The notes under the pieces are model-generated. The model was not told the origin of the DNA and made no database searches. It saw nothing but the letters and a program-made list of their open reading frames with translations. Below are positions 18,196 through 43,926 of a stretch of 64,000 bases of DNA, piece after piece. Within the stretch, counting starts at the first letter, position 1. Each line of letters starts with the position of its first letter. This DNA is from a virus (taxonomy: Duplodnaviria > Heunggongvirae > Uroviricota > Caudoviricetes), in IMG/VR virus record IMGVR_UViG_644736364_000008. One strand, given 5' to 3'. The position numbers were made by a program, and so were the translations under genes.

Positions 18196-18722
18196 CAGAT
18201 AAGCTCCACTGTGCAGTGCGGCGCATCCTGCACCCGGCTGATGGCCCAGCGGGCGTCACGCCATAAATCACCGCTTGCTTCCGCCAGTTCCTCGCCTCGC
18301 TTCGCACCGGATGCCGTGGCGTCATAGTCCTGGTAACGTTCGTTGAGCATGGCGCGTGCCCAGCAGTAAACCGCGTTGAAATAGTGCTGAATGCGCTCGC
18401 TTTTGCCGTCCAGTTGTTCCGCCGGGACTTCTGCCAGCGAGGCATACCCCAGCATCTGCTGGCGTCTGCGAAACTCATACAGCTCTGCGTTGACCTCCGA
18501 AATTGCCGACAGGGCAACCTGTTTTAAACGCGGCTGCGTCACCGTGCCGTCAGTGCGCATCACACTGCGAAACTCCGACAGGTCCACATCAGGCCAGAAC
18601 GGCGTATTCCTGATGATTTCCGCCTGTTCCGGTGCCTGTTCTGGCGCAACAAACTTCATGCTGCTTTCTCCTGAAATAGAGGGCGGTGGACGGGGTTTTG
18701 ATGTGGCAGTGCCTTTCGCCAC
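18195..18722 (-). CDS. Head completion/stabilisation protein (P2 gpL-like)
   Basis: 175-aa ORF downstream of M. Confidence 0.75.
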   Translation of the reverse strand: MAKGTATSKPRPPPSISGESSMKFVAPEQAPEQAEIIRNTPFWPDVDLSEFRSVMRTDGTVTQPRLKQVALSAISEVNAELYEFRRRQQMLGYASLAEVPAEQLDGKSERIQHYFNAVYCWARAMLNERYQDYDATASGAKRGEELAEASGDLWRDARWAISRVQDAPHCTVELI

Positions 18723-18754
18723 CCCGTGCCGCCCGTGCGCGGGGGCACGTTCTG

Positions 18755-19405
18755 TCAGCGGCTGTCATTGCGCAGTCTGCGCTCTAGCTGCTGTTTGTCT
18801 TTTTTCACGCCACAGCGGGGATCGAGCTGTAACGCATGGTTGAGATGATTAAGGGCAGACGCCGGATTTCTTTCACTCAGGACAGCGCCAATCGCTTTAT
18901 GCAGACGCGCCCGTGACTGGTCCGGCATATCCATACCGTCTGTCAGCTCCAGGGTCTTCAGCAACAGATCGGTATCAAAGCCGGTGGCGGCAAGCATTGC
19001 GCTCTGGGCTGCATCTGCCATTTCCTCTGCCAGCACGGTCTGCACGTTGCGGTTACCTAACGGCATCACCCAGCCATGACGCAGGGCGTGACGCCCGATC
19101 TCCAGCGCCCCGGCATAATCTCCGGCATCAATGCGCCACAGCATCACGTACATCAGCACGTCATCCTGTTGAGCGCCTCCGGCAGCCAGGACACCCTCCG
19201 CCCAGGCGGCGTACTTCGGCAGCAGCTCCACCTTGATTTCCGCTTTTTTGACCGTGGACTGAACGCCCTTGAGACGGCGGCGGTCTTCCGCCAGTTGCAG
19301 CAGCATCAGGTCATAGCCCGACGCGTGGCGAACGCTGCCGCCCTCGCGGGCGGCCTGTTCAGCCTGAACGCGCAGGCGATGCTGCCGTGCGGGACTCAGG
19401 CTCAT
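18755..19405 (-). CDS. Terminase small (endonuclease) subunit (P2 gpM-like)
   Basis: 216-aa ORF downstream of the capsid gene N. Confidence 0.75.
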   Translation of the reverse strand: MSLSPARQHRLRVQAEQAAREGGSVRHASGYDLMLLQLAEDRRRLKGVQSTVKKAEIKVELLPKYAAWAEGVLAAGGAQQDDVLMYVMLWRIDAGDYAGALEIGRHALRHGWVMPLGNRNVQTVLAEEMADAAQSAMLAATGFDTDLLLKTLELTDGMDMPDQSRARLHKAIGAVLSERNPASALNHLNHALQLDPRCGVKKDKQQLERRLRNDSR

Positions 19406-19408
19406 GAA

Positions 19409-20467
19409 TTACGCTCCGGTTTCTGCTGCTGCGGCGCTGAAGTCGCCAATCTGGATGTTTTCCACCAGTGCGGCGCAGCGGTAGTCCTCAACCACATAGG
19501 CTTCGTTAACGGATTCAAAGTTTTCAATCCGGTCACGTTTCGGGTTGTCGATAACTGAGCGGCGGCGGGTGTCTTCCTGCCAGTAGATGGACAGGTTATC
19601 CAGACGGGTGATCAGCAGTGCATTCGGCGGGAAGAACGGCGCACGCACGGCCTGCAGGCCACCCATGCGTTTCTGACTGATGATCATATCAGCAGCCAGT
19701 TTTTCACTGTTTTCCTGCTCTTTGTTGACCAGCGGGAAATACTTGTCAGACAGCAGTTCACGACCGCAAATCACCACCAGATCGTCATCGTCCTGGTAGA
19801 CCACATCGATAAGCTCATTGACGGCATCCATCACCACGGCGTCCAGGTTGGCATATTCGCCACCTTTCCCGACTTTCACCGCACCCGGTGTGGTTTCACC
19901 GCCCGTGGTGGTGCTGCCCATGACGTGATCCGGTGCATCTTCACGGATTTTCTGCAGCCAGCCTTTGTTCACATCCTGCAGCAGCGGGTTTTCGCTACGG
20001 TTGGAGGTTTTCGCACGCTTCACGCCGTTAAAGCCGATCATGATGCGGTCCAGAGCCTGACGTTTCACGATGGCGTCACGGATGCGCACCTGGAAATCCT
20101 GAAACTTCGCCCACAGGTCCAGCTTCGCGTAGGTCAGCACCGTGTCAAAGTTGGTCTGCTCGCATTTATATTCCACATCGACCATCAGCGTCGGATCGAC
20201 AGGTTCACGCTCTTTCGCGGTGGTGTCAGTGGTTCCGGCAATGGTGCTGCCAACTCCCAGCCCCAGCAGCTGACCGGACTGCTCAGTCACTGGCGTGACG
20301 TTAATCAGCGTCAGGAAAGCGGCGGACTGCTGGATCTGGTCTTCCAGCGTCTGCTGCACAGACGGCTCCACGGTGAACTTGCTGGACAGTTCTTCAACTG
20401 CCACACCGTTCAGACGCGCCAGCTGCTGCAGGTAAGCGTTAAAAGCAAAGCGGGTATTCTTCTTCAT
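19409..20467 (-). CDS. Major capsid protein (P2 gpN-like)
   Basis: 352-aa ORF downstream of scaffold. Confidence 0.9.
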   Translation of the reverse strand: MKKNTRFAFNAYLQQLARLNGVAVEELSSKFTVEPSVQQTLEDQIQQSAAFLTLINVTPVTEQSGQLLGLGVGSTIAGTTDTTAKEREPVDPTLMVDVEYKCEQTNFDTVLTYAKLDLWAKFQDFQVRIRDAIVKRQALDRIMIGFNGVKRAKTSNRSENPLLQDVNKGWLQKIREDAPDHVMGSTTTGGETTPGAVKVGKGGEYANLDAVVMDAVNELIDVVYQDDDDLVVICGRELLSDKYFPLVNKEQENSEKLAADMIISQKRMGGLQAVRAPFFPPNALLITRLDNLSIYWQEDTRRRSVIDNPKRDRIENFESVNEAYVVEDYRCAALVENIQIGDFSAAAAETGA

Positions 20468-35111: not shown

Positions 35112-35157
35112 ATGTAGGAATTTCGGACGCGGGTTCAACTCCCGCCAGCTCCACCAA
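35112..35157. repeat. attR: second copy of the 46-bp ssrA 3'-end repeat
   Basis: Exact repeat of 1016-1061. Confidence 0.8.
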
Positions 35158-35735: not shown

Positions 35736-36524
35736 ATGACAAATCTACAACTGGAAGAAAGATTTAGGGCGCTTGAGAAAGATTACGATGCGCTCATTTC
35801 CACAAAATATACTGCGCAGAACGTTCTCACTCACACTATGGAAACCTATGTTGATTCTGGTAAATATAAAAACTGGATCGCCAGAGTGAAAAAGTTAATA
35901 GAGGACAGCTACGGAAAAGAGTCTGATTATTACAATGACTTCAATACTGTAAACAGCAGGTGGTCTTCTAATTACAATACACTGATCAAAAGTTATAAAC
36001 CGTTGTTTGATGCGGCGAGAGATGATCTTGCGCACTCTGCTGTCAGTACTAATACTCCTCAAGAAGGTTCGCCGCTGAGCCTCGTACTTAATATTCTTAA
36101 CAGGTTTCCGACCTTTGTTCGCCAGTTAAAGAGGCGGTACAACGGCCGTGCGCCGCTTGAAGTTAATGATGAGTATGACGTACAGGATTTGATTTATGCA
36201 CTGCTGACGCTTCATTTTAATGATATTAGGGCGGAAGAGTATACCCCCAGCTTTGCGGGCGCGGCCTCAAGACAGGACTTTCTTTTGAAAAAAGAGAAAA
36301 TTGTGATAGAGGTGAAGAAAACCCGTGAATCTCTGGGAGCGGGTAAAGTTGGTGGAGAGTTGCTTATTGATATGGCGCGCTACCGCGCTCACCAAGACTG
36401 CGATACGTTGATCTTGTTTGTATATGACCCGGATTGCTACATAAATAATCCTTTGGGCGTGAAAACCGATCTGGAATCTAAAGACGCGGAAGGAAAAGTG
36501 AAGGTTGTTATTGCGCAGTTCTGA
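35736..36524 (+). CDS. Hypothetical protein with PD-(D/E)xK-like nuclease signature
   Basis: 262 aa; GGAAGG RBS; C-terminal half has DIRAEEYTP ... KIVIEVKKT (D...E-x-K pattern); N-terminal coiled-coil. Confidence 0.5.
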   Translation: MTNLQLEERFRALEKDYDALISTKYTAQNVLTHTMETYVDSGKYKNWIARVKKLIEDSYGKESDYYNDFNTVNSRWSSNYNTLIKSYKPLFDAARDDLAHSAVSTNTPQEGSPLSLVLNILNRFPTFVRQLKRRYNGRAPLEVNDEYDVQDLIYALLTLHFNDIRAEEYTPSFAGAASRQDFLLKKEKIVIEVKKTRESLGAGKVGGELLIDMARYRAHQDCDTLILFVYDPDCYINNPLGVKTDLESKDAEGKVKVVIAQF

Positions 36525-36557
36525 CACGCTTAAGTGTCACCTTACAGGATTAGGTTT

Positions 36558-36606
36558 GCGGCCGTGCCAGCAGGACGAGCATGAAAAAGGCCGCTGGCAC
36601 GGCCGG
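36558..36606. terminator. Long hairpin between convergent genes
   Basis: 12-bp perfect inverted repeat GGCCGTGCCAGC ... GCTGGCACGGCC. Confidence 0.4.
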
Positions 36607-36611
36607 ATTTG

Positions 36612-36905
36612 TCATCTTTGCCAGGTCAAATCAAAATCTACGTGAAAATCCGCAGGCTTAAGCTCGCAACTGCCACCACGCCCAATTAACGACGTTATGT
36701 TTACAACGTTTGAACCTGTTGAGATGGCAAGTTGAGTGTCATCTGTAAACGTGATGATTAGCATTTCAGTCTGATGAACCTGTACTCCAGTTTTCTGAAA
36801 ACCAATCTGGACAGATTTCACCGTTTTCCCAACCATTTCACGGGCTTGATTGATAGAGTAATTAGCTTCAACTTGTAGGTCATTCCTGAACTTGGGTAGT
36901 GTCAT
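36612..36905 (-). CDS. Hypothetical small protein (97 aa)
   Basis: ORF downstream of, and same strand as, the GIY-YIG gene. Confidence 0.45.
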   Translation of the reverse strand: MTLPKFRNDLQVEANYSINQAREMVGKTVKSVQIGFQKTGVQVHQTEMLIITFTDDTQLAISTGSNVVNITSLIGRGGSCELKPADFHVDFDLTWQR

Positions 36906-37115
36906 TTTACATCCTCTTTAGTGAAGTTTTCGCTATTTAAATCAGCAGCATTCCTTTTAAATCACTGGCATGTCAGCAGTGGATAGTCTGAGTGTAACGT
37001 CCAGTGAGGGGAATAAATATTGGTCAGACTTTGCACAAAAGAGCCAACTATCGCGGGCTCTCTCTCATCATGTGCGAAAATTGACCACAATATGAAATCC
37101 AGTTCCATTCCGAAA

Positions 37116-37940
<825 letters not shown>

Positions 37941-38043
37941 TCAATTGACAACTTATAATCCCTACTAGTTAGCATTATGATTTCCAGAGTGAGGAATATA
38001 AAAATCTCTGTTTCTGGCACATAACAGCCCTTAAGATCGTAGC

Positions 38044-38096
38044 TCGCCATCATGGGGTGTCGGGGGGCGGAGGTTCAAATCCTCTCGTGCCGACCA
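38044..38096 (+). tRNA. Partial tRNA-Pro (3' fragment only; anticodon region to CCA)
   Basis: CATGGGGTGTCGGGGGGCGGAGGTTCAAATCCTCTCGTGCCGACCA matches the 3' part of tRNA-Pro(GGG); no complementary 5' acceptor strand (CGGCACG) upstream. Confidence 0.6.
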
Positions 38097-38110
38097 AAAA
38101 TCCCTTAAGA

Positions 38111-38137
38111 ACCAGCCTATTATGGCTGGTTTTTTTA
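38111..38137 (+). terminator. Rho-independent terminator after the tRNA fragment
   Basis: ACCAGCC-TATTAT-GGCTGGT followed by TTTTTTT. Confidence 0.55.
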
Positions 38138-38337
38138 TGATTGTTTTTTATGCGGAGAAATACCGGGGAATAATTGGGGTAAAACACCTTTAGGCTATTC
38201 ACTTAGCCTACCACCATCAAAATCTTTCCGAATGTATCCATCTCTTTTTTCTTATGCAGCTAAAACGAAGTCTTGATACTGTTTATTTACACAGATAAGA
38301 ATAATACTGTCTACAAACGCAGTACAAAAGAAGTGTT

Positions 38338-38517
38338 ATGCGTATTGAGATCTCCATAGCCAAAGACAAAATGACCAAATGCCAAACGGCGCTGTGGACG
38401 CGTTAAAGGAAGAATTAACCCAACACATTGGCAAGCGTTATGACGATGTGGAGATGATCGTAAAAGCCACCAGCAACGATAGTTTTTCAGTTAGACATAC
38501 TGCAGATAAAGATTGAG
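38338..38517 (+). pseudogene. dinI-like gene interrupted by a frameshift
   Basis: Frame 1 [16 protein letters not shown]... stops after 22 codons; a shifted frame continues ...[32 protein letters not shown], together resembling DinI. Confidence 0.45.
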
Positions 38518-38880
38518 CTAAAACTTTCGTTCAGGAAACTCTGAATGATACCTGAGAGTCTACTGAAGAGTTGTTTGTTCACTAGTTAGCACGTAGGAAA
38601 TCATTCAATACTCGCACTATCGGAAGTTCACCAGCCAGTCGTAGCACGTCCTTGCAAACGACGTGCCTACGGTTTCAATCACCTCTCACCATCAATTCTA
38701 TCAATAATAATTAAACAGCGCCTAGACAAAATAAATAACAACAAGTCAACAACCTCGACAGGATGCCGATGGGATGATGAAGAGATAAGAAAGAATAACC
38801 AGTAAAGCCCTAAAACGTCAGCGTTCAGACGCGTTTTTTACTTAATCGGTAACAAATACGTTGTATCATAGCAAAATAAA

Positions 38881-40830
38881 ATGATTGTTCTAAATCAGAT
38901 TAACTCCTCACTTTTGTACAATGTCGCTTACAGGTATACCATGAAATCCGAGACGCTAACTGTCCAACAACTTTTTCAAGACCGCCGACAATACTGTGTT
39001 CCATTCTATCAACGTGCCTATGTATGGACTCAGCAAGACCAGTGGTCAGCTCTACTGGAGGATATCCTAGAGAAAGTACAATCCCGGCTCTCGGGTACAA
39101 AACCAACTCCCCATTTCCTTGGTGCGGTTGTACTGGAACCTCAATCAAAAAAAGGATTATTAGGTGTAGATTCCATACATATTATTGATGGTCAGCAACG
39201 ATTGACCACTCTTCAATATGTTCTGGCATCCATCCGATTAGCATTACGTGCTACGGATCTTTCCAGCTTAGAGGCTCTCATTTCGCCTTGCCTGAAAAAC
39301 TCAAACGAAGACACAATGCGAAATAAAGAAGTAGAACGCTTCAAACTGTGGCCAACTTTTCGGGATCAAACTCATTTTATTCAAAGTTTTAATGTTGAAA
39401 ATATTGACGATCTCCGGGACGTATTCTCTGATAGTTTCACGCAGCATGGTACGTTGCGTAAGCATTTTAATCACCCGCCATCACTAGAAGCATTATGTTT
39501 TTTTACTGAAGCCTTTATAAAATGGATTAAAATAGAAAACCACTCACCACAAGAAAATGCTGTAGCTCTAATTGAGGCTGTCTTAACAGATCTGAAACTG
39601 GTAAGCATATTTCTCGAAGCTGAAGATGATGCCCAAATAATTTTTGAAACATTAAATGGGCGAGGGGCGGAACTTCATGCTACGGATCTTATTCGCAACT
39701 ATATCTTTATGTGCGCTGAGCATGAAAATATTAATGCTATTGAATTATATGAAAATGAGTGGAAGAGCTTTGAAGATAAATACTGGTCGGAAAAACAACG
39801 CCGTGGACGTATTAATAAACCACGCATGGAGTGGCTAGTACATGCGACATTGCAATCAGAAAGGCAACGTGAAATTGATCTGTCTCGCCTTTACAATGAG
39901 TATCGTGATTATGTAAGTAAGGACTTGTCTTCACAACGAGCAGATCTGCAAGTAAAGCGCCTCAAACAATATGCATCACAATATAAAGAATTGGTTGATG
40001 GTTTTGGCACAACCCCCATCTCACACTTTGGATATCGCATCGCAGACTATGATGTGACGACACTTTATCCGCTTGCTTTGTTCATTTCGATAGCTAACAT
40101 CGCTGATGATGAGAAAGCAGCCATGTATAATGATCTTGTCTCCTACGTAGTACGAAGAGCCGTATGTGGCCTGACGCCAAAGAATTACAACAATGTATTT
40201 ATGAATGTATTGCGGCACTTGGCTAAAACGGAAATTTCCAGTGTTGAGTTACGTAATATCCTCAATAACTTAAATGGCGAAGCCTCACGTTGGCCTGGTG
40301 ACTCAGAATTTCTCAACGCTTGCATCAATGCTCCACTTTATCCTGGCAGGCTCGACGCACCGAAAATGCGCTCAATGTTAACGGAACTTGAAAGAGAACT
40401 TTGTCGCCAAGTAAAGACAGAAAAGCCTGATGTTCCAAATCTTTCTAATCTCGATATCGATCATCTTATGCCTCAAAGTTGGTATTCCTGTTGGCCTCTC
40501 GAAAATGGTCGTATGGTGACAAATTCAGATGCTACGGTATTGAACCAAATTGTTCTGTCTGGAACCGATCTTACCCCTGAACAGCTACTGGTAAGGAAAC
40601 GGCAACAAGCGATATCTACTTTGGGAAATCTAACTTTGCTTAACCTTAGCGTAAACCGTTCTGTTCAGAATGCTGTATTTCTGAAAAAACGTGATGCTCT
40701 CATCGTCCACACCAATCTACGACTGAACATTCCACTTATAGTTAAGGATAAATGGGATGAGGATGAAATCCTGGAGCGGGGTAAAAAGTTGGGGGAAATT
40801 GCATTGAAAGTATGGCCAAAACACGATTAA
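38881..40830 (+). CDS. GmrSD-family type IV restriction endonuclease (DUF262 + DUF1524/HNH-like)
   Basis: N-terminal IIDGQQRLTTLQY (DGQQR motif) and C-terminal DIDHLMPQSW ... GNLTLLNLSVNRSVQN His-Me finger motifs; alternative start at 38941. Confidence 0.75.
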   Translation: MIVLNQINSSLLYNVAYRYTMKSETLTVQQLFQDRRQYCVPFYQRAYVWTQQDQWSALLEDILEKVQSRLSGTKPTPHFLGAVVLEPQSKKGLLGVDSIHIIDGQQRLTTLQYVLASIRLALRATDLSSLEALISPCLKNSNEDTMRNKEVERFKLWPTFRDQTHFIQSFNVENIDDLRDVFSDSFTQHGTLRKHFNHPPSLEALCFFTEAFIKWIKIENHSPQENAVALIEAVLTDLKLVSIFLEAEDDAQIIFETLNGRGAELHATDLIRNYIFMCAEHENINAIELYENEWKSFEDKYWSEKQRRGRINKPRMEWLVHATLQSERQREIDLSRLYNEYRDYVSKDLSSQRADLQVKRLKQYASQYKELVDGFGTTPISHFGYRIADYDVTTLYPLALFISIANIADDEKAAMYNDLVSYVVRRAVCGLTPKNYNNVFMNVLRHLAKTEISSVELRNILNNLNGEASRWPGDSEFLNACINAPLYPGRLDAPKMRSMLTELERELCRQVKTEKPDVPNLSNLDIDHLMPQSWYSCWPLENGRMVTNSDATVLNQIVLSGTDLTPEQLLVRKRQQAISTLGNLTLLNLSVNRSVQNAVFLKKRDALIVHTNLRLNIPLIVKDKWDEDEILERGKKLGEIALKVWPKHD

Positions 40831-41080
40831 TGCAATTAATAAAATGATTATAGTGGCCTTACATTAGTAAGGCCGCTACTCACTATTAAATACTTTAATT
40901 TGCATCAAGAACAGCAGTGTCAGCCCTAGGTCTCGGACTTTGTACCGCTTATCTTGTCTTCAAAAATCAGCTCGCATCCTGCACAGTTCAGCGCATTACG
41001 TTGTAGATCTGTGTTCTGGTCATTTGTTGACACACGTACATAGCCAATAAGCATGGTAGATCTCCCTGACAAAAGCAGGA

Positions 41081-41575
41081 ATGATGCCATTTGCTCGTTA
41101 TTTCTGCATTTTCATAAACGTTGGTTTGGGAGAAGCGGCAAAACGGAATGTGGGCAACGGGGAAAACCAAATCCCTGATATGTCTTTCTGGACGGTTACT
41201 GGTGGCAATGGAAATTTTGTGATTCGTCAACCTGACGGGCTAATCATTCAGATGGTTACTGTAAGTATAAGCGGCCCAGTGGCGATGAATGGAATGACTG
41301 ATAATGCTTATGCCATCACAGGTTCTAATAAGTCTTATATTGCCACAGCCACATTGCCCTTTGTATTTCCTAATAAGGTGCTGGGCGTTATCCCTCTGGT
41401 ATCAACAACAGCTTATGGTGGTGTATCCAGTAATATTACAGGTTCATACGCGACGGCGGTTTGTTCTTTTGCCGCTGTCAGGGGGAATAATACGATTGTG
41501 TTCAAAGTCGACAAACCACTGAATGCAGCCTTTCCTTCAGATACCAGCGTCTCAGCGTTAATCATTGGACGGTAA
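41081..41575 (+). CDS. Alternative tail-fibre C-terminal cassette (S'v-like)
   Basis: Gly/Ser/Thr-rich 164-aa ORF in inverted orientation; its codons 11-18 (FINVGLGE) carry the crossover site. Confidence 0.55.
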   Translation: MMPFARYFCIFINVGLGEAAKRNVGNGENQIPDMSFWTVTGGNGNFVIRQPDGLIIQMVTVSISGPVAMNGMTDNAYAITGSNKSYIATATLPFVFPNKVLGVIPLVSTTAYGGVSSNITGSYATAVCSFAAVRGNNTIVFKVDKPLNAAFPSDTSVSALIIGR

Positions 41576-41577
41576 TA

Positions 41578-42021
41578 ATGAACTCAGTATTCTTTTCACC
41601 CGGAAGTAAAAGTTTTTATCTGCAAGAATTGTTTCCAGAATATGAGGATGCGGGAACGCTTCCTGATGATGTTATTGAAATTACCAGAGAAACATATGAG
41701 CAATTTCTTGGTCTGCATCCAGAAGGGAAAGAAATTGGCGCTGACAGTTCAGGACGGCCAGTATGGATTAATTCCCCACCCCCTTCAAAAGAGGATGAGG
41801 TGTTGACGGCTGAAATGAAAAAAATATCTTTGGTTTCAGAAGTCAATACCTACATCAATACCCATCAGTGGCCTGGCAAAGCTGCTATTGGTCGTCTGAA
41901 AGGCGAGGAACTGGCGCAATATAATTCGTGGCTGGATTATCTGGACGCACTGGAACTGGTCGATACTTCCTGTGCGCCAGATATTGAATGGCCTACGCCT
42001 CCGGCAGTTCAGGCCAGATGA
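41578..42021 (+). CDS. Alternative tail-fibre assembly protein (U'-like)
   Basis: 147-aa ORF following S'v; 3' end overlaps the convergent tfa gene. Confidence 0.6.
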   Translation: MNSVFFSPGSKSFYLQELFPEYEDAGTLPDDVIEITRETYEQFLGLHPEGKEIGADSSGRPVWINSPPPSKEDEVLTAEMKKISLVSEVNTYINTHQWPGKAAIGRLKGEELAQYNSWLDYLDALELVDTSCAPDIEWPTPPAVQAR

Positions 42022-42595
42022 CATCCGGCGCTGTGCTGGTATTTGTTGCCGTCACCGCGTCAATGTAATCCAGCACAGCGTTAAGCCGGGTTGTTTCTGC
42101 CTGCATCAGCTTCCGTCCGGCCTGTAATTTCAGCTGAATCAGACCGATGGAAGCCATTGCAGCATCAATCAGTGACTGACGCTGTGCTTCTGCCGCGTCT
42201 ACTGCGGCGCTATGCTGTGCCTCAGTATCGGTCACCCATTTCTCACCATCCCATTTATCGTATGGCGTTAATGGGGCAATAGTGGTTGTATTTTCGGGGT
42301 AATCACCCGGTGCTGTGATTTGTTTTGATTCTCCCGTTTCGGTGTTATAGACGATTTCACCGCGATGGTCTGGCACATATTCCCATGAATTTAAATTCAC
42401 AGAACGACAGATAGCATAACCCGCCTTATGTATACCTGGTGCATCCAGACAGGAATATGCCGGGATACCAACACCAACGGCAAGATATTCACTTGAAGTG
42501 GAAATATATTCCCGAGTTTCACCATCATAGTTATAAACGGTAATATCCCCTGCCTTTGTAGCAACAAGTCCACTATTTAATATTGCTTTATCCAT
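41993..42595 (-). CDS. Tail fibre assembly protein (U/Tfa)
   Basis: 200 aa, about 85 percent identical to the P2-like copy at 8952-9554. Confidence 0.8.
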   Translation of the reverse strand: MDKAILNSGLVATKAGDITVYNYDGETREYISTSSEYLAVGVGIPAYSCLDAPGIHKAGYAICRSVNLNSWEYVPDHRGEIVYNTETGESKQITAPGDYPENTTTIAPLTPYDKWDGEKWVTDTEAQHSAAVDAAEAQRQSLIDAAMASIGLIQLKLQAGRKLMQAETTRLNAVLDYIDAVTATNTSTAPDVIWPELPEA

Positions 42596-43338
42596 TATGC
42601 TGCTCTCACGATATAGTTAAATGCAATGTTGCGTGGACGGGTATCGACGGGGTTAACGGCCACTGTACCCGACACGGACTGGTCATTACCGTTGCTAACG
42701 GTAATGTTACTACTGGTTGATCCAATCCCTACTGAATCGGTAAATTTAGCACCTGAGCCGCTCAAAGTTCCCGAGATGATAGCTAGCTCCACATAAAAAG
42801 TACCTACAGTTGGCTCTTGTGTTGACAGCACCGCACGCCTTGAATCAACGCCGCGCCCATCATCCCAGCCACGAATAAACTCACCACGTAAATCAGGCAA
42901 TTTATTTGTCGGATAAGCCTTTGCCAGTTCCGGGTATTCTTCAGCAGAAAAAGCCGCACCGTTGCATTTCAGCCAGCCTGTTGGCGGTGTGGCTGAAGGC
43001 CATGGAACAGGCACACCAACAGGTAATGCAGAGCCTTCTCCCAAACCAAGGTTTTCGAGAGCCGTTTTCACCGTGCCGTCCGATTTGATATCGCTAAACG
43101 GATTCTTGCGGCTTAACAGCAGCGCACGAAGCGCGGTAAGCAGCTGGTCGTGCCGCGCCTTCTCCAGACTGGCACCGGATGCCTCCACCACGCTGCAGAG
43201 TTCTTCCTGCAACATGTCAAAGTAGTCATCATCCAGATCGGTGGCAGGCGTGCCTGTCTGGGGGTTACCACGGGTAAAACCGTTCTTACCCGCGCCGAAC
43301 TTATCCTTCTGCGCGGTTTTCGTGTCTATACGATGCAT
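42595..43338 (-). CDS. Tail fibre protein (constant N-terminus plus variable C-terminus)
   Basis: 247 aa; shares [40 protein letters not shown]...[15 protein letters not shown] with P2-like H. Confidence 0.8.
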
Positions 43339-43341
43339 GGA

Positions 43342-43926
43342 TTACTCCGGATATTTAAAAATTACGTAGGTATGCGAAGGGCAGAGTTTGTTAAGCACAC
43401 ATTCGACGACGGTGTCGCCCCAGATACGCAGCGCGGAATCACAGGGATCGCCACATGTCATCCAGGTGCTGTTGGTGGCGGCTGGCATGTTGACCTGCCA
43501 GTAATACCGCCATTCCGGCGCATTCACCGCGTCAGTACAGGCCGATGAGCAGGTGAACGTGCTTTTGTCGTATCGCGTGATGGTGGCGTCTGGTCTGCCC
43601 AGGGCAGCAAGCTGTGCAAGGTAAAAATCCTCATTGATGCCGCCCGCCAGGTTAACCTTCGCATCCAGTCGTTGCTGACGCTGGCGAAGGGTCTGTGTTC
43701 CTGCGGGAATACATTCATCCGGCAGGCCGCACAGACGCTCCCAGCGATTTATCAGTTCGGTGGTGGTGCGCGGATCCAGCTCCCGCATCAGGGCATCCGC
43801 ACGCTGATGAACGCGGGTTAATGACTGTGCCGCACCGGCAATCGCCGGATCGCTGGCTGACCACGCCGGACCGGGCGGCAGCAGTGCCGACAACAGACGG
43901 ATGTAATCATCGTTTGTCACGCCCAT
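43342..43926 (-). CDS. Baseplate protein (Mu gp48 / e14 YmfQ-like)
   Basis: 194-aa ORF between baseplate J-like gene and tail fibre. Confidence 0.6.

Follow-up and report, generated by a model that had tools for sequence, protein, structure and literature searches.

Can an invertible tail-fibre segment still switch once the invertase gene beside it has been destroyed? This question is raised by a window of 64,000 nucleotides (the whole stretch of DNA that was analysed, IMG/VR virus record IMGVR_UViG_644736364_000008), in which an e14-like prophage of Escherichia coli sequence type 95 (ST95) carries, between two crossover sites, a segment with two alternative sets of tail-fibre genes and, next to it, a truncated gene of a Pin-family serine invertase (delta-pin). 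The original prediction had left the choice between a recombinase supplied in trans and a frozen segment. The dependence on a trans-acting enzyme stands, since the window encodes no functional invertase and inversion must therefore rely on an enzyme from elsewhere; the frozen state does not, because both orientations exist in near-identical genomes. The features on which the argument is based are the following:

41109-41134 (+): invertase-proximal crossover site (pix), TTTTCATAAACG-TT-GGTTTGGGAGAA, 26 bp, core dinucleotide 41121-41122
43036-43061 (+): fibre-side crossover site (pix), TTCTCCCAAACC-AA-GGTTTTCGAGAG, 26 bp, core 43048-43049, within the fibre gene
41121-43049 (no strand): invertible segment, 1,929 bp core to core, exactly inverted in IHE3034, PMV-1, APEC O1 and others
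42595-43338 (-): expressed tail-fibre gene, 247 amino acids (Pfam Collar 1e-15; PHROG tail fibre; e14 homology 94-95%)
41993-42595 (-): tfaE-type tail-fibre assembly chaperone, expressed orientation (Pfam Caudo_TAP 4e-30; 89% DNA identity to e14 tfaE; PGAP name tfaE)
41081-41575 (+): silent alternative fibre tip, gp53-like C-terminal domain (Pfam Gp53-like_C; PHROG tail fibre)
41578-42021 (+): tail-fibre assembly chaperone of the alternative tip (Pfam Caudo_TAP 6e-28; PHROG 188 tail fibre assembly)
40926-41054 (-): truncated Pin-family serine invertase, delta-pin, an open reading frame (ORF) of 42 codons, MLIGYVRVSTNDQNTDLQRNALNCAGCELIFEDKISGTKSE, then T, then stop
38941-40830 (+): GmrSD-type (type IV, modification-dependent) restriction gene (Pfam GmrSD_N 7e-34, GmrSD_C 4e-20; PADLOC mREase_IV 1415 bits, full length)

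The two inverted gix/pix-like sites that had been placed in the fibre gene and in the alternative cassette are indeed there. A repeat search of the window disclosed two inverted-repeat arms of 20 nucleotides (41116-41135 and 43035-43054), complementary at 19 of the 20 positions (95%), and the window contains the 20-mer pattern AAACSTTGGTTTGGGAGAAG exactly two times, once on each strand, where 0 occurrences are expected (100 shuffles). The peptides proposed for the two sites are present as well, ALENLGLGE in the ORF 42595-43338(-) and FINVGLGE in the ORF 41081-41575(+). The central dinucleotides of the two 26-bp sites (TT and AA) are compatible with inversion, and both sites are the same as those of the e14 P segment in MG1655, 41109-41134 matching the pinE-proximal site and 43036-43061 the stfP-side one; the e14 inversion site has been described as the inverted repeat TTGGTTTGGGAGAAGG (PMC12529663). 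Between the sites, one fibre tip and one chaperone are located on each strand according to Pfam and PHROGs (Collar, Gp53-like_C and two Caudo_TAP domains), which is the mirror-image Sv-U / U'-S'v layout of the original prediction. The anatomy and the sites identical to those of e14 bear out its further statement, and the locus is an invertible tail-fibre segment of the Mu G / P1 C / e14 P type.

The expressed fibre gene is made up of a constant N-terminal part (43062-43338), lying outside the segment, and of a StfE-type collar-domain tip (42595-43035), lying inside it. After inversion, the alternative tip is joined, from GLGE onward, to the constant fibre N-terminus, and the 247-amino-acid fibre of IHE3034 carries the alternative tip. 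The ORF 41081-41575 also possesses an 18-residue leader with its own ATG codons (41081-41135), placed between delta-pin and the left site, so that the pin-proximal side can encode a free fibre-tip protein in either orientation; PGAP annotates the pin-proximal fibre-tip ORF as a coding sequence (CDS) in both orientations.

The segment has demonstrably inverted after the truncation of pin, between near-identical genomes. Its orientation was surveyed in 5,426 complete E. coli genomes, using an inverted query built in silico from the end of GmrSD, delta-pin and the left site, followed by the reverse complement of the far end of the segment. At least 19 complete genomes, including IHE3034 and PMV-1, match the inverted junction along 1,400 bp with 100% identity (99.9% in APEC O1), and it was covered to at least 80% in 43 genomes, for an inverted total of approximately 25-43; the orientation of the window is represented by 77-82 genomes. 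The same delta-pin truncation occurs in both orientation classes, and the inverted loci that were fetched confirm the inversion, with the pseudogene unaltered and the 247-amino-acid fibre bearing the other tip. The clearest pair is formed by UTI89 (window orientation) and IHE3034 (inverted), which show 0 differences over about 28 kb besides the inversion itself, their flanks being identical for about 6 kb on the left, defence genes included, and about 19 kb on the right. When IHE3034 was used as the query, the class of genomes with zero differences over 21 kb contained four inverted ones (IHE3034, MS20655, AH21F008 and N63) and at least six distinct non-inverted strains (UTI89, NU14, SF-173, FDAARGOS_1295, FDAARGOS_1297 and GU2018_CL13).

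Since the flanks vary too little (0-3 differences per 21 kb), a four-gamete test was used instead of a tree. A G>A single-nucleotide polymorphism (SNP) in the terminase gene terL is common to N21 (inverted) and N44 (not inverted), and the ancestral base is also found in both orientations; all four combinations of SNP and orientation thus exist, which implies either at least two inversions or one inversion accompanied by a recombination event. The inversion leaves the outer half-sites where they were, and the nucleotide adjoining the core dinucleotide on its outer side always remains with its flank; the exchange thus falls within the identical 15-bp core.

The PMV-1 prophage (L088 22615-41400) is 100% identical to the left of the segment, but to its right the identity is only 98.2% and the tape-measure gene is broken; this points to a recombination boundary at the fibre-side crossover site or close to it. 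No divergent version of this prophage in the window orientation was found, the best match (98.5%) being the UTI89 type.

What, then, is left of the resident invertase? The original prediction that no invertase-like ORF occurs anywhere in the window has to be corrected, since a 41-codon pin remnant lies at the expected position, between GmrSD and the left site. Its homology to Pin spans 40932/3-41054, corresponding to codons 1-41 of 184, with a DNA identity of 97.5% to nucleotides 1-122 of e14 pinE (blastn). It was the only match in the window when PinE, Gin and PinQ were used as tblastn queries (PinE residues 1-44 at 1e-23; 79.5% protein identity between Gin and the remnant), and it is recognized by Pfam as Resolvase (6.5e-9, profile positions 2-47 of 145 only) and by PHROGs as a DNA invertase (5e-30). 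The remnant keeps the catalytic-serine motif YVRVSTNDQ and stops at residue 41, so that the complete catalytic domain, the oligomerisation helix and the C-terminal helix-turn-helix (HTH) domain are absent; in RefSeq/PGAP it is already a pseudogene ("recombinase family protein, missing C-terminus"). The same tblastn searches disclosed no functional serine invertase adjoining the segment or elsewhere in the window, and the remainder of the same prophage in UTI89 contains no invertase, only a tyrosine integrase. A promoter scan around delta-pin gave no call. In place of the remainder of pin there are a hairpin and the GmrSD gene, which is convergent with the truncated invertase and abuts it. The GmrSD-like restriction gene had been correctly assigned to this neighbouring position, and it is full-length by Pfam and PADLOC.

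The retained part of pin might nonetheless matter for inversion, as a cis-acting enhancer is located inside the 5' end of invertase genes of this family, a component that the original prediction did not consider, and the remnant retains that stretch:

40970-41033 (-): stretch homologous to the Fis-dependent recombinational enhancer (sis) of Hin and Gin, wholly within the retained 123 nucleotides of delta-pin; putative

It is known that the Hin enhancer, 65 bp long and about 100 bp from hixL, contains ATTTA and TAATG in an AT-rich region flanked by two Fis sites (PMC3798978). The putative enhancer contains two G-N13-C cores, centred at 41026 and 40977 (49 bp apart), the nearer of which is about 95 bp from the centre of the left site, and ATCTA and TAATG lie between them. 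The interval 40970-41033 was placed on the basis of the hin enhancer, which lies within about the first 30 codons of hin. Among 74 distinct full-length Pin homologues of Enterobacterales, the synonymous-codon identity is 0.61 over codons 8-29 and 0.38 over codons 42-178 (Mann-Whitney p=2.6e-5), an excess of synonymous conservation that is expected from a DNA element overlapping the 5' coding region. The putative enhancer in the remnant may still be functional.

If the window lacks a functional invertase, where might the enzyme come from? Cross-complementation among the Gin, Cin and Hin enzymes is a classical phenomenon, and invertase homologues are widespread in E. coli, with a match in 5,052 of the 5,426 genomes. 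Invertase loci were counted in the carriers with a query in which a part of GmrSD, serving as bait, was combined with the whole of pinQ and with the 3' portions of pinE, of gin and of a P2-like invertase, taking the number of matching places per record minus one. By this count, which registers DNA similarity to invertase 3' parts only, at least one extra invertase-like locus is present in 37 of the 60 listed carrier chromosomes (about 60%); the bait alone matched one place in each of 60 listed carrier chromosomes. With the bait and pinQ only, the extra locus was kept in MS7163 and APEC O1 and lost in UTI89 and IHE3034; therefore, the one extra locus of MS7163 is of the PinQ type, and that of UTI89 and IHE3034 of the Pin/Gin type, the matching of a given enzyme to a given strain being presumptive.

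Searches aimed at locating these extra loci did not find them. A scan of GTDB representatives gave 79 loci with intact Pin homologues, no ST95 genome being among them; a full-text literature search with UTI89 locus tags and "invertase" found nothing; and a 57-nucleotide pinQ fragment returned 2,555 tied records, with MS7163 not among the 60 matches listed. A P2-family prophage with invertible fibres, "GI-18", is mentioned in the IMT5155 paper, which gives no coordinates for it.

On the whole, we consider it probable that the locus is an e14-like P segment whose pin was destroyed by the GmrSD replacement and which is now a passive substrate, flipped in trans by a serine invertase with the aid of Fis. 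According to this model, inversion between the two pix sites would swap the C-terminal receptor-binding tip of the fibre along with its chaperone. The cognate pin was destroyed by a replacement that brought in the convergent type IV gene GmrSD and left codons 1-41. The cis-acting parts, i.e., both 26-bp sites and the 5' part of pin corresponding to the Fis-binding enhancer, have survived, only the enzyme being missing, and a Pin-, Gin- or PinQ-type serine invertase from another prophage, a plasmid or an infecting phage, plus the Fis of the host, would invert the segment, which would remain stable between episodes of invertase supply.

Several observations weigh against this model. Besides the limited reach of the locus counts, searches aimed at the extra loci neither located a trans-acting gene nor showed one to be intact, and several inverted genomes (PMV-1, GN06489) are without an extra chromosomal invertase-like locus; their flips either date from the past or were due to a more distant enzyme, to a plasmid or to a phage. 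The four-gamete pattern could have been generated by a single inversion and homologous recombination. All four UTI89 records show one orientation, so that switching could be rare, although these records are possibly not independent assemblies. The assignment of the putative enhancer is in part indirect; its position agrees with that published (PMC3798978). Finally, deletion of pinE locks the e14 segment of K-12 in spite of the presence of pinQ and pinR (PMC12529663); native levels of heterologous invertases may be insufficient or, as we infer, the deletion of pinE may also remove the enhancer.

These points have to be set against the other explanations that can be envisaged. One might imagine that inversion ceased at the truncation of pin and that the sites have merely not decayed yet, as the lack of a functional invertase in the window, the shared orientation of the four UTI89 records, the decay of the segment to pseudogenes in PA45B and the roughly 40% of listed carrier chromosomes without another invertase-like locus would suggest. 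We regard such a relic as highly improbable, and for the ST95 population as a whole it is already contradicted: genomes that share 21-28 kb of otherwise identical sequence have the same truncation junction with the segment in one orientation or the other, the terL SNP occurs in both, and a second lineage (L091 type) also shows both. It is instead quite unlikely, if somewhat less easily dismissed, that the orientation polymorphism predates the truncation, the module formed by GmrSD and delta-pin having been moved by homologous recombination into prophages that already differed. This module does move by recombination, since e14-like prophages at both ssrA and icd, and a further prophage whose baseplate differs, have the same junction, with at least four alternative cassettes. 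The flanks of UTI89 and IHE3034, though, are identical for about 6 kb on the left and about 19 kb on the right, so that an import would have had to replace the segment alone with an inverted copy of the same sequence, a copy itself requiring inversion; the terL pattern and the pair of isolates ES7 and ES8, described below, add further cases.

A last possibility is that the short inverted repeats recombined by a RecA-dependent or illegitimate event, without any site-specific recombinase. The exchange maps to a 15-bp identical stretch, which by itself does not discriminate between mechanisms, and in some of the inverted genomes no extra invertase locus was detected. On the other hand, RecA usually needs more than 15-20 bp for an efficient exchange, many genomes of the species contain invertase homologues, and the repeats coincide exactly with the 26-bp sites known as substrates of PinE and PinQ (PMC12529663), all of which makes this event very unlikely. 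The flipping is most likely done by a serine invertase acting in trans.

A more speculative extension of the trans-acting model, which we judge unlikely, is that the pin stub has been kept for its enhancer, the locus being a "satellite" switch flipped by resident or incoming phage invertases, and that the ORF 41081-41575 might express a free receptor-binding tip varying with orientation, by analogy with StfE2 of e14. If this were true, the switch would belong functionally to the defence islet next to it (GmrSD, PD-T4-3 and the REase-like protein) and not only a host-range device of the prophage.

The truncated locus is not confined to one prophage. Besides e14-like prophages at ssrA (L091) and icd (L093), a prophage that differs in its baseplate (L092) has the identical junction between GmrSD and delta-pin, which is combined with at least four unrelated alternative cassettes, the pair of sites being intact in all of them. 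The L091-type lineage exists in both orientations, including the bullfrog isolates ES7 and ES8, which have opposite ones, and the alternative cassette of the icd-type lineage adjoins delta-pin in other genomes as well; the L092-type lineage in the alternative orientation was not seen among the matches listed. A recombining module, consisting of a type IV restriction gene, an invertase stub and a pix site, has been distributed among e14-like prophages that occupy several attachment sites. As this module clearly spreads by recombination, the cases between lineages are weaker evidence of inversion than those within ST95.

In some strains the module has decayed. GmrSD is frameshifted in APEC O1 (L090 ~18521-20411) and interrupted by IS3 in E12053 and MS20654, and in PA45B (L094 4164-6324) the whole invertible segment has decayed to pseudogenes, with both sites remaining. 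In two diverged carriers, L092 (3951-4133) and L093 (3992-4135), the invertase stub runs for about 61 codons (compare 40872-40932 in the window), since the 1-nucleotide deletion of the ST95 version is absent there; the extra 20 codons resemble Pin weakly (SLGLTLLFLMQIKGF versus RPGLKKLLRTLSAGD). Degenerate invertases beside intact pix-type site pairs also occur in two sequenced phages, vB_EcoM-606R2 (L003 2308-2622) and a P2-like phage from strain T22 (L005 2128-2622), one of them being 104 amino acids long and the other 164 amino acids long with a frameshifted tail. PHROGs contains a family of invertase N-terminal fragments of about 51 amino acids.

The prophage harbouring the segment is full-length and e14/SfV-like, with an HK97-type head, a Mu-type tail, e14-type regulators and a tyrosine integrase, and is inserted at ssrA in E. 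coli ST95; positions 38500-43400 of the window are identical in UTI89. The start of GmrSD (38941) was taken from the UTI89 PGAP CDS, the mechanical ORF beginning at 38881. Its product joins PF03235 (DUF262, GmrS-like) and PF07510 (DUF1524, a GmrD-like HNH domain), both above threshold, in a single polypeptide, and the gene is present in 301 of the 5,426 complete E. coli genomes. The defence islet, 35736-40830, extends between the attachment (att) site and the tail-fibre end of the prophage. Besides GmrSD, the following features were found in this region:

35736-36524: DpnII/MboI-fold restriction endonuclease (REase)-like protein, defence islet
37116-37922: PD-T4-3 GIY-YIG protein, defence islet (PADLOC 453 bits)
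~38338-38555: DinI-like pseudogene, defence islet
40853-40878 (no strand): GC-rich hairpin just past the GmrSD stop, core GGCCTTAC-ATTA-GTAAGGCC, read by eye

The hairpin is kept in every aligned locus with the GmrSD and delta-pin junction. It marks the end of the incoming cassette and may act as a terminator, although, for want of a T-run after it, it was not called in the terminator scan.

A P2-like prophage (1062-35111), which has its own integrase and a fixed H/G tail fibre, is arranged in tandem with the e14-like one at ssrA, between two direct 46-bp copies of the 3' end of ssrA (1016-1061 and 35112-35157). It is present in MS7163 and N53, which match the window, and absent from UTI89, IHE3034, PMV-1 and APEC O1. 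As a source of the invertase it was rejected, since it encodes none (tblastn).

The loss of the resident invertase, hence, need not freeze a host-range switch if the crossover sites, and probably the enhancer too, survive; the switch then depends on the other mobile elements in the cell. This is relevant for the annotation of "invertase-less" tail-fibre inversions, for assembly differences between near-identical ST95 pathogens and for the host range of induced prophages. The advance is incremental, because trans-inversion beside a truncated invertase has already been published (PMC4134206).

In that case, prophage Phi4 of EC958 (ST131), which has a truncated invertase, was found in both orientations in PacBio reads, and the action in trans of the invertase of another prophage was inferred (Forde et al. 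2014, PMC4134206). Phi4 resembles the locus described here in having an invertible tail-fibre segment, 26-bp crossover sites and an adjoining truncated invertase. It is, however, a different prophage, with gix-like sites (TTATCGAATACCTC GGTTTACAGGAA), and its invertase lacks only the C-terminal HTH domain, whereas just 41 codons are kept here. Moreover, the evidence for Phi4 is read heterogeneity within one culture, while ours comes from the comparison between genomes, and no replacement by a restriction gene has been described for Phi4.

A close relative is the e14 P segment of K-12 (ymfQ-stfP-tfaP / tfaE-stfE'-pinE-mcrA), with which the locus is collinear, sharing the gene order and the neighbours ymfQ, ymfR and tfaE. 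Both pix sites are identical in the two systems, the DNA identity being 89-95% for the StfE-type tip and tfaE and 97.5% for the pin 5' end, and in both of them a modification-dependent restriction gene lies beyond pin. This gene is mcrA in e14, where it is located downstream of an intact pinE and in the same direction, whereas GmrSD is convergent and replaces all of pin except 41 codons. The second cassette is unrelated to stfP/tfaP of e14, and the insertion sites differ, e14 being located at icd and the full-length prophage described here at ssrA. It has been reported that PinQ of prophage Qin inverts the e14 P segment in trans (Kirigo et al. 2025, PMC12529663), the pin-proximal ORF becoming a chimeric protein; this protein, StfE2, is reported to block the adsorption of T2 (PMC12529663). 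A PinQ-type locus is present in MS7163, but in K-12 the resident pinE is intact, unlike the situation described here.

More generally, the segment shares with Mu G/Gin, P1 C/Cin and Salmonella H/Hin the features of a serine-invertase substrate, i.e., two inverted 26-bp sites with a 2-bp core, and the mirror-image cassettes of fibre tip and chaperone are arranged as in Mu and P1. Invertase genes of the Mu/P1/Hin family contain a Fis-dependent enhancer within their 5' end, at a distance of about 100 bp from the closest crossover site (PMC3798978), and the homologous stretch at this locus is a putative counterpart. The cassette contents differ, and Mu G, P1 C and Salmonella H each carry their own functional invertase in cis, unlike the segment described here, which keeps 41 codons of it and is nevertheless found in both orientations.

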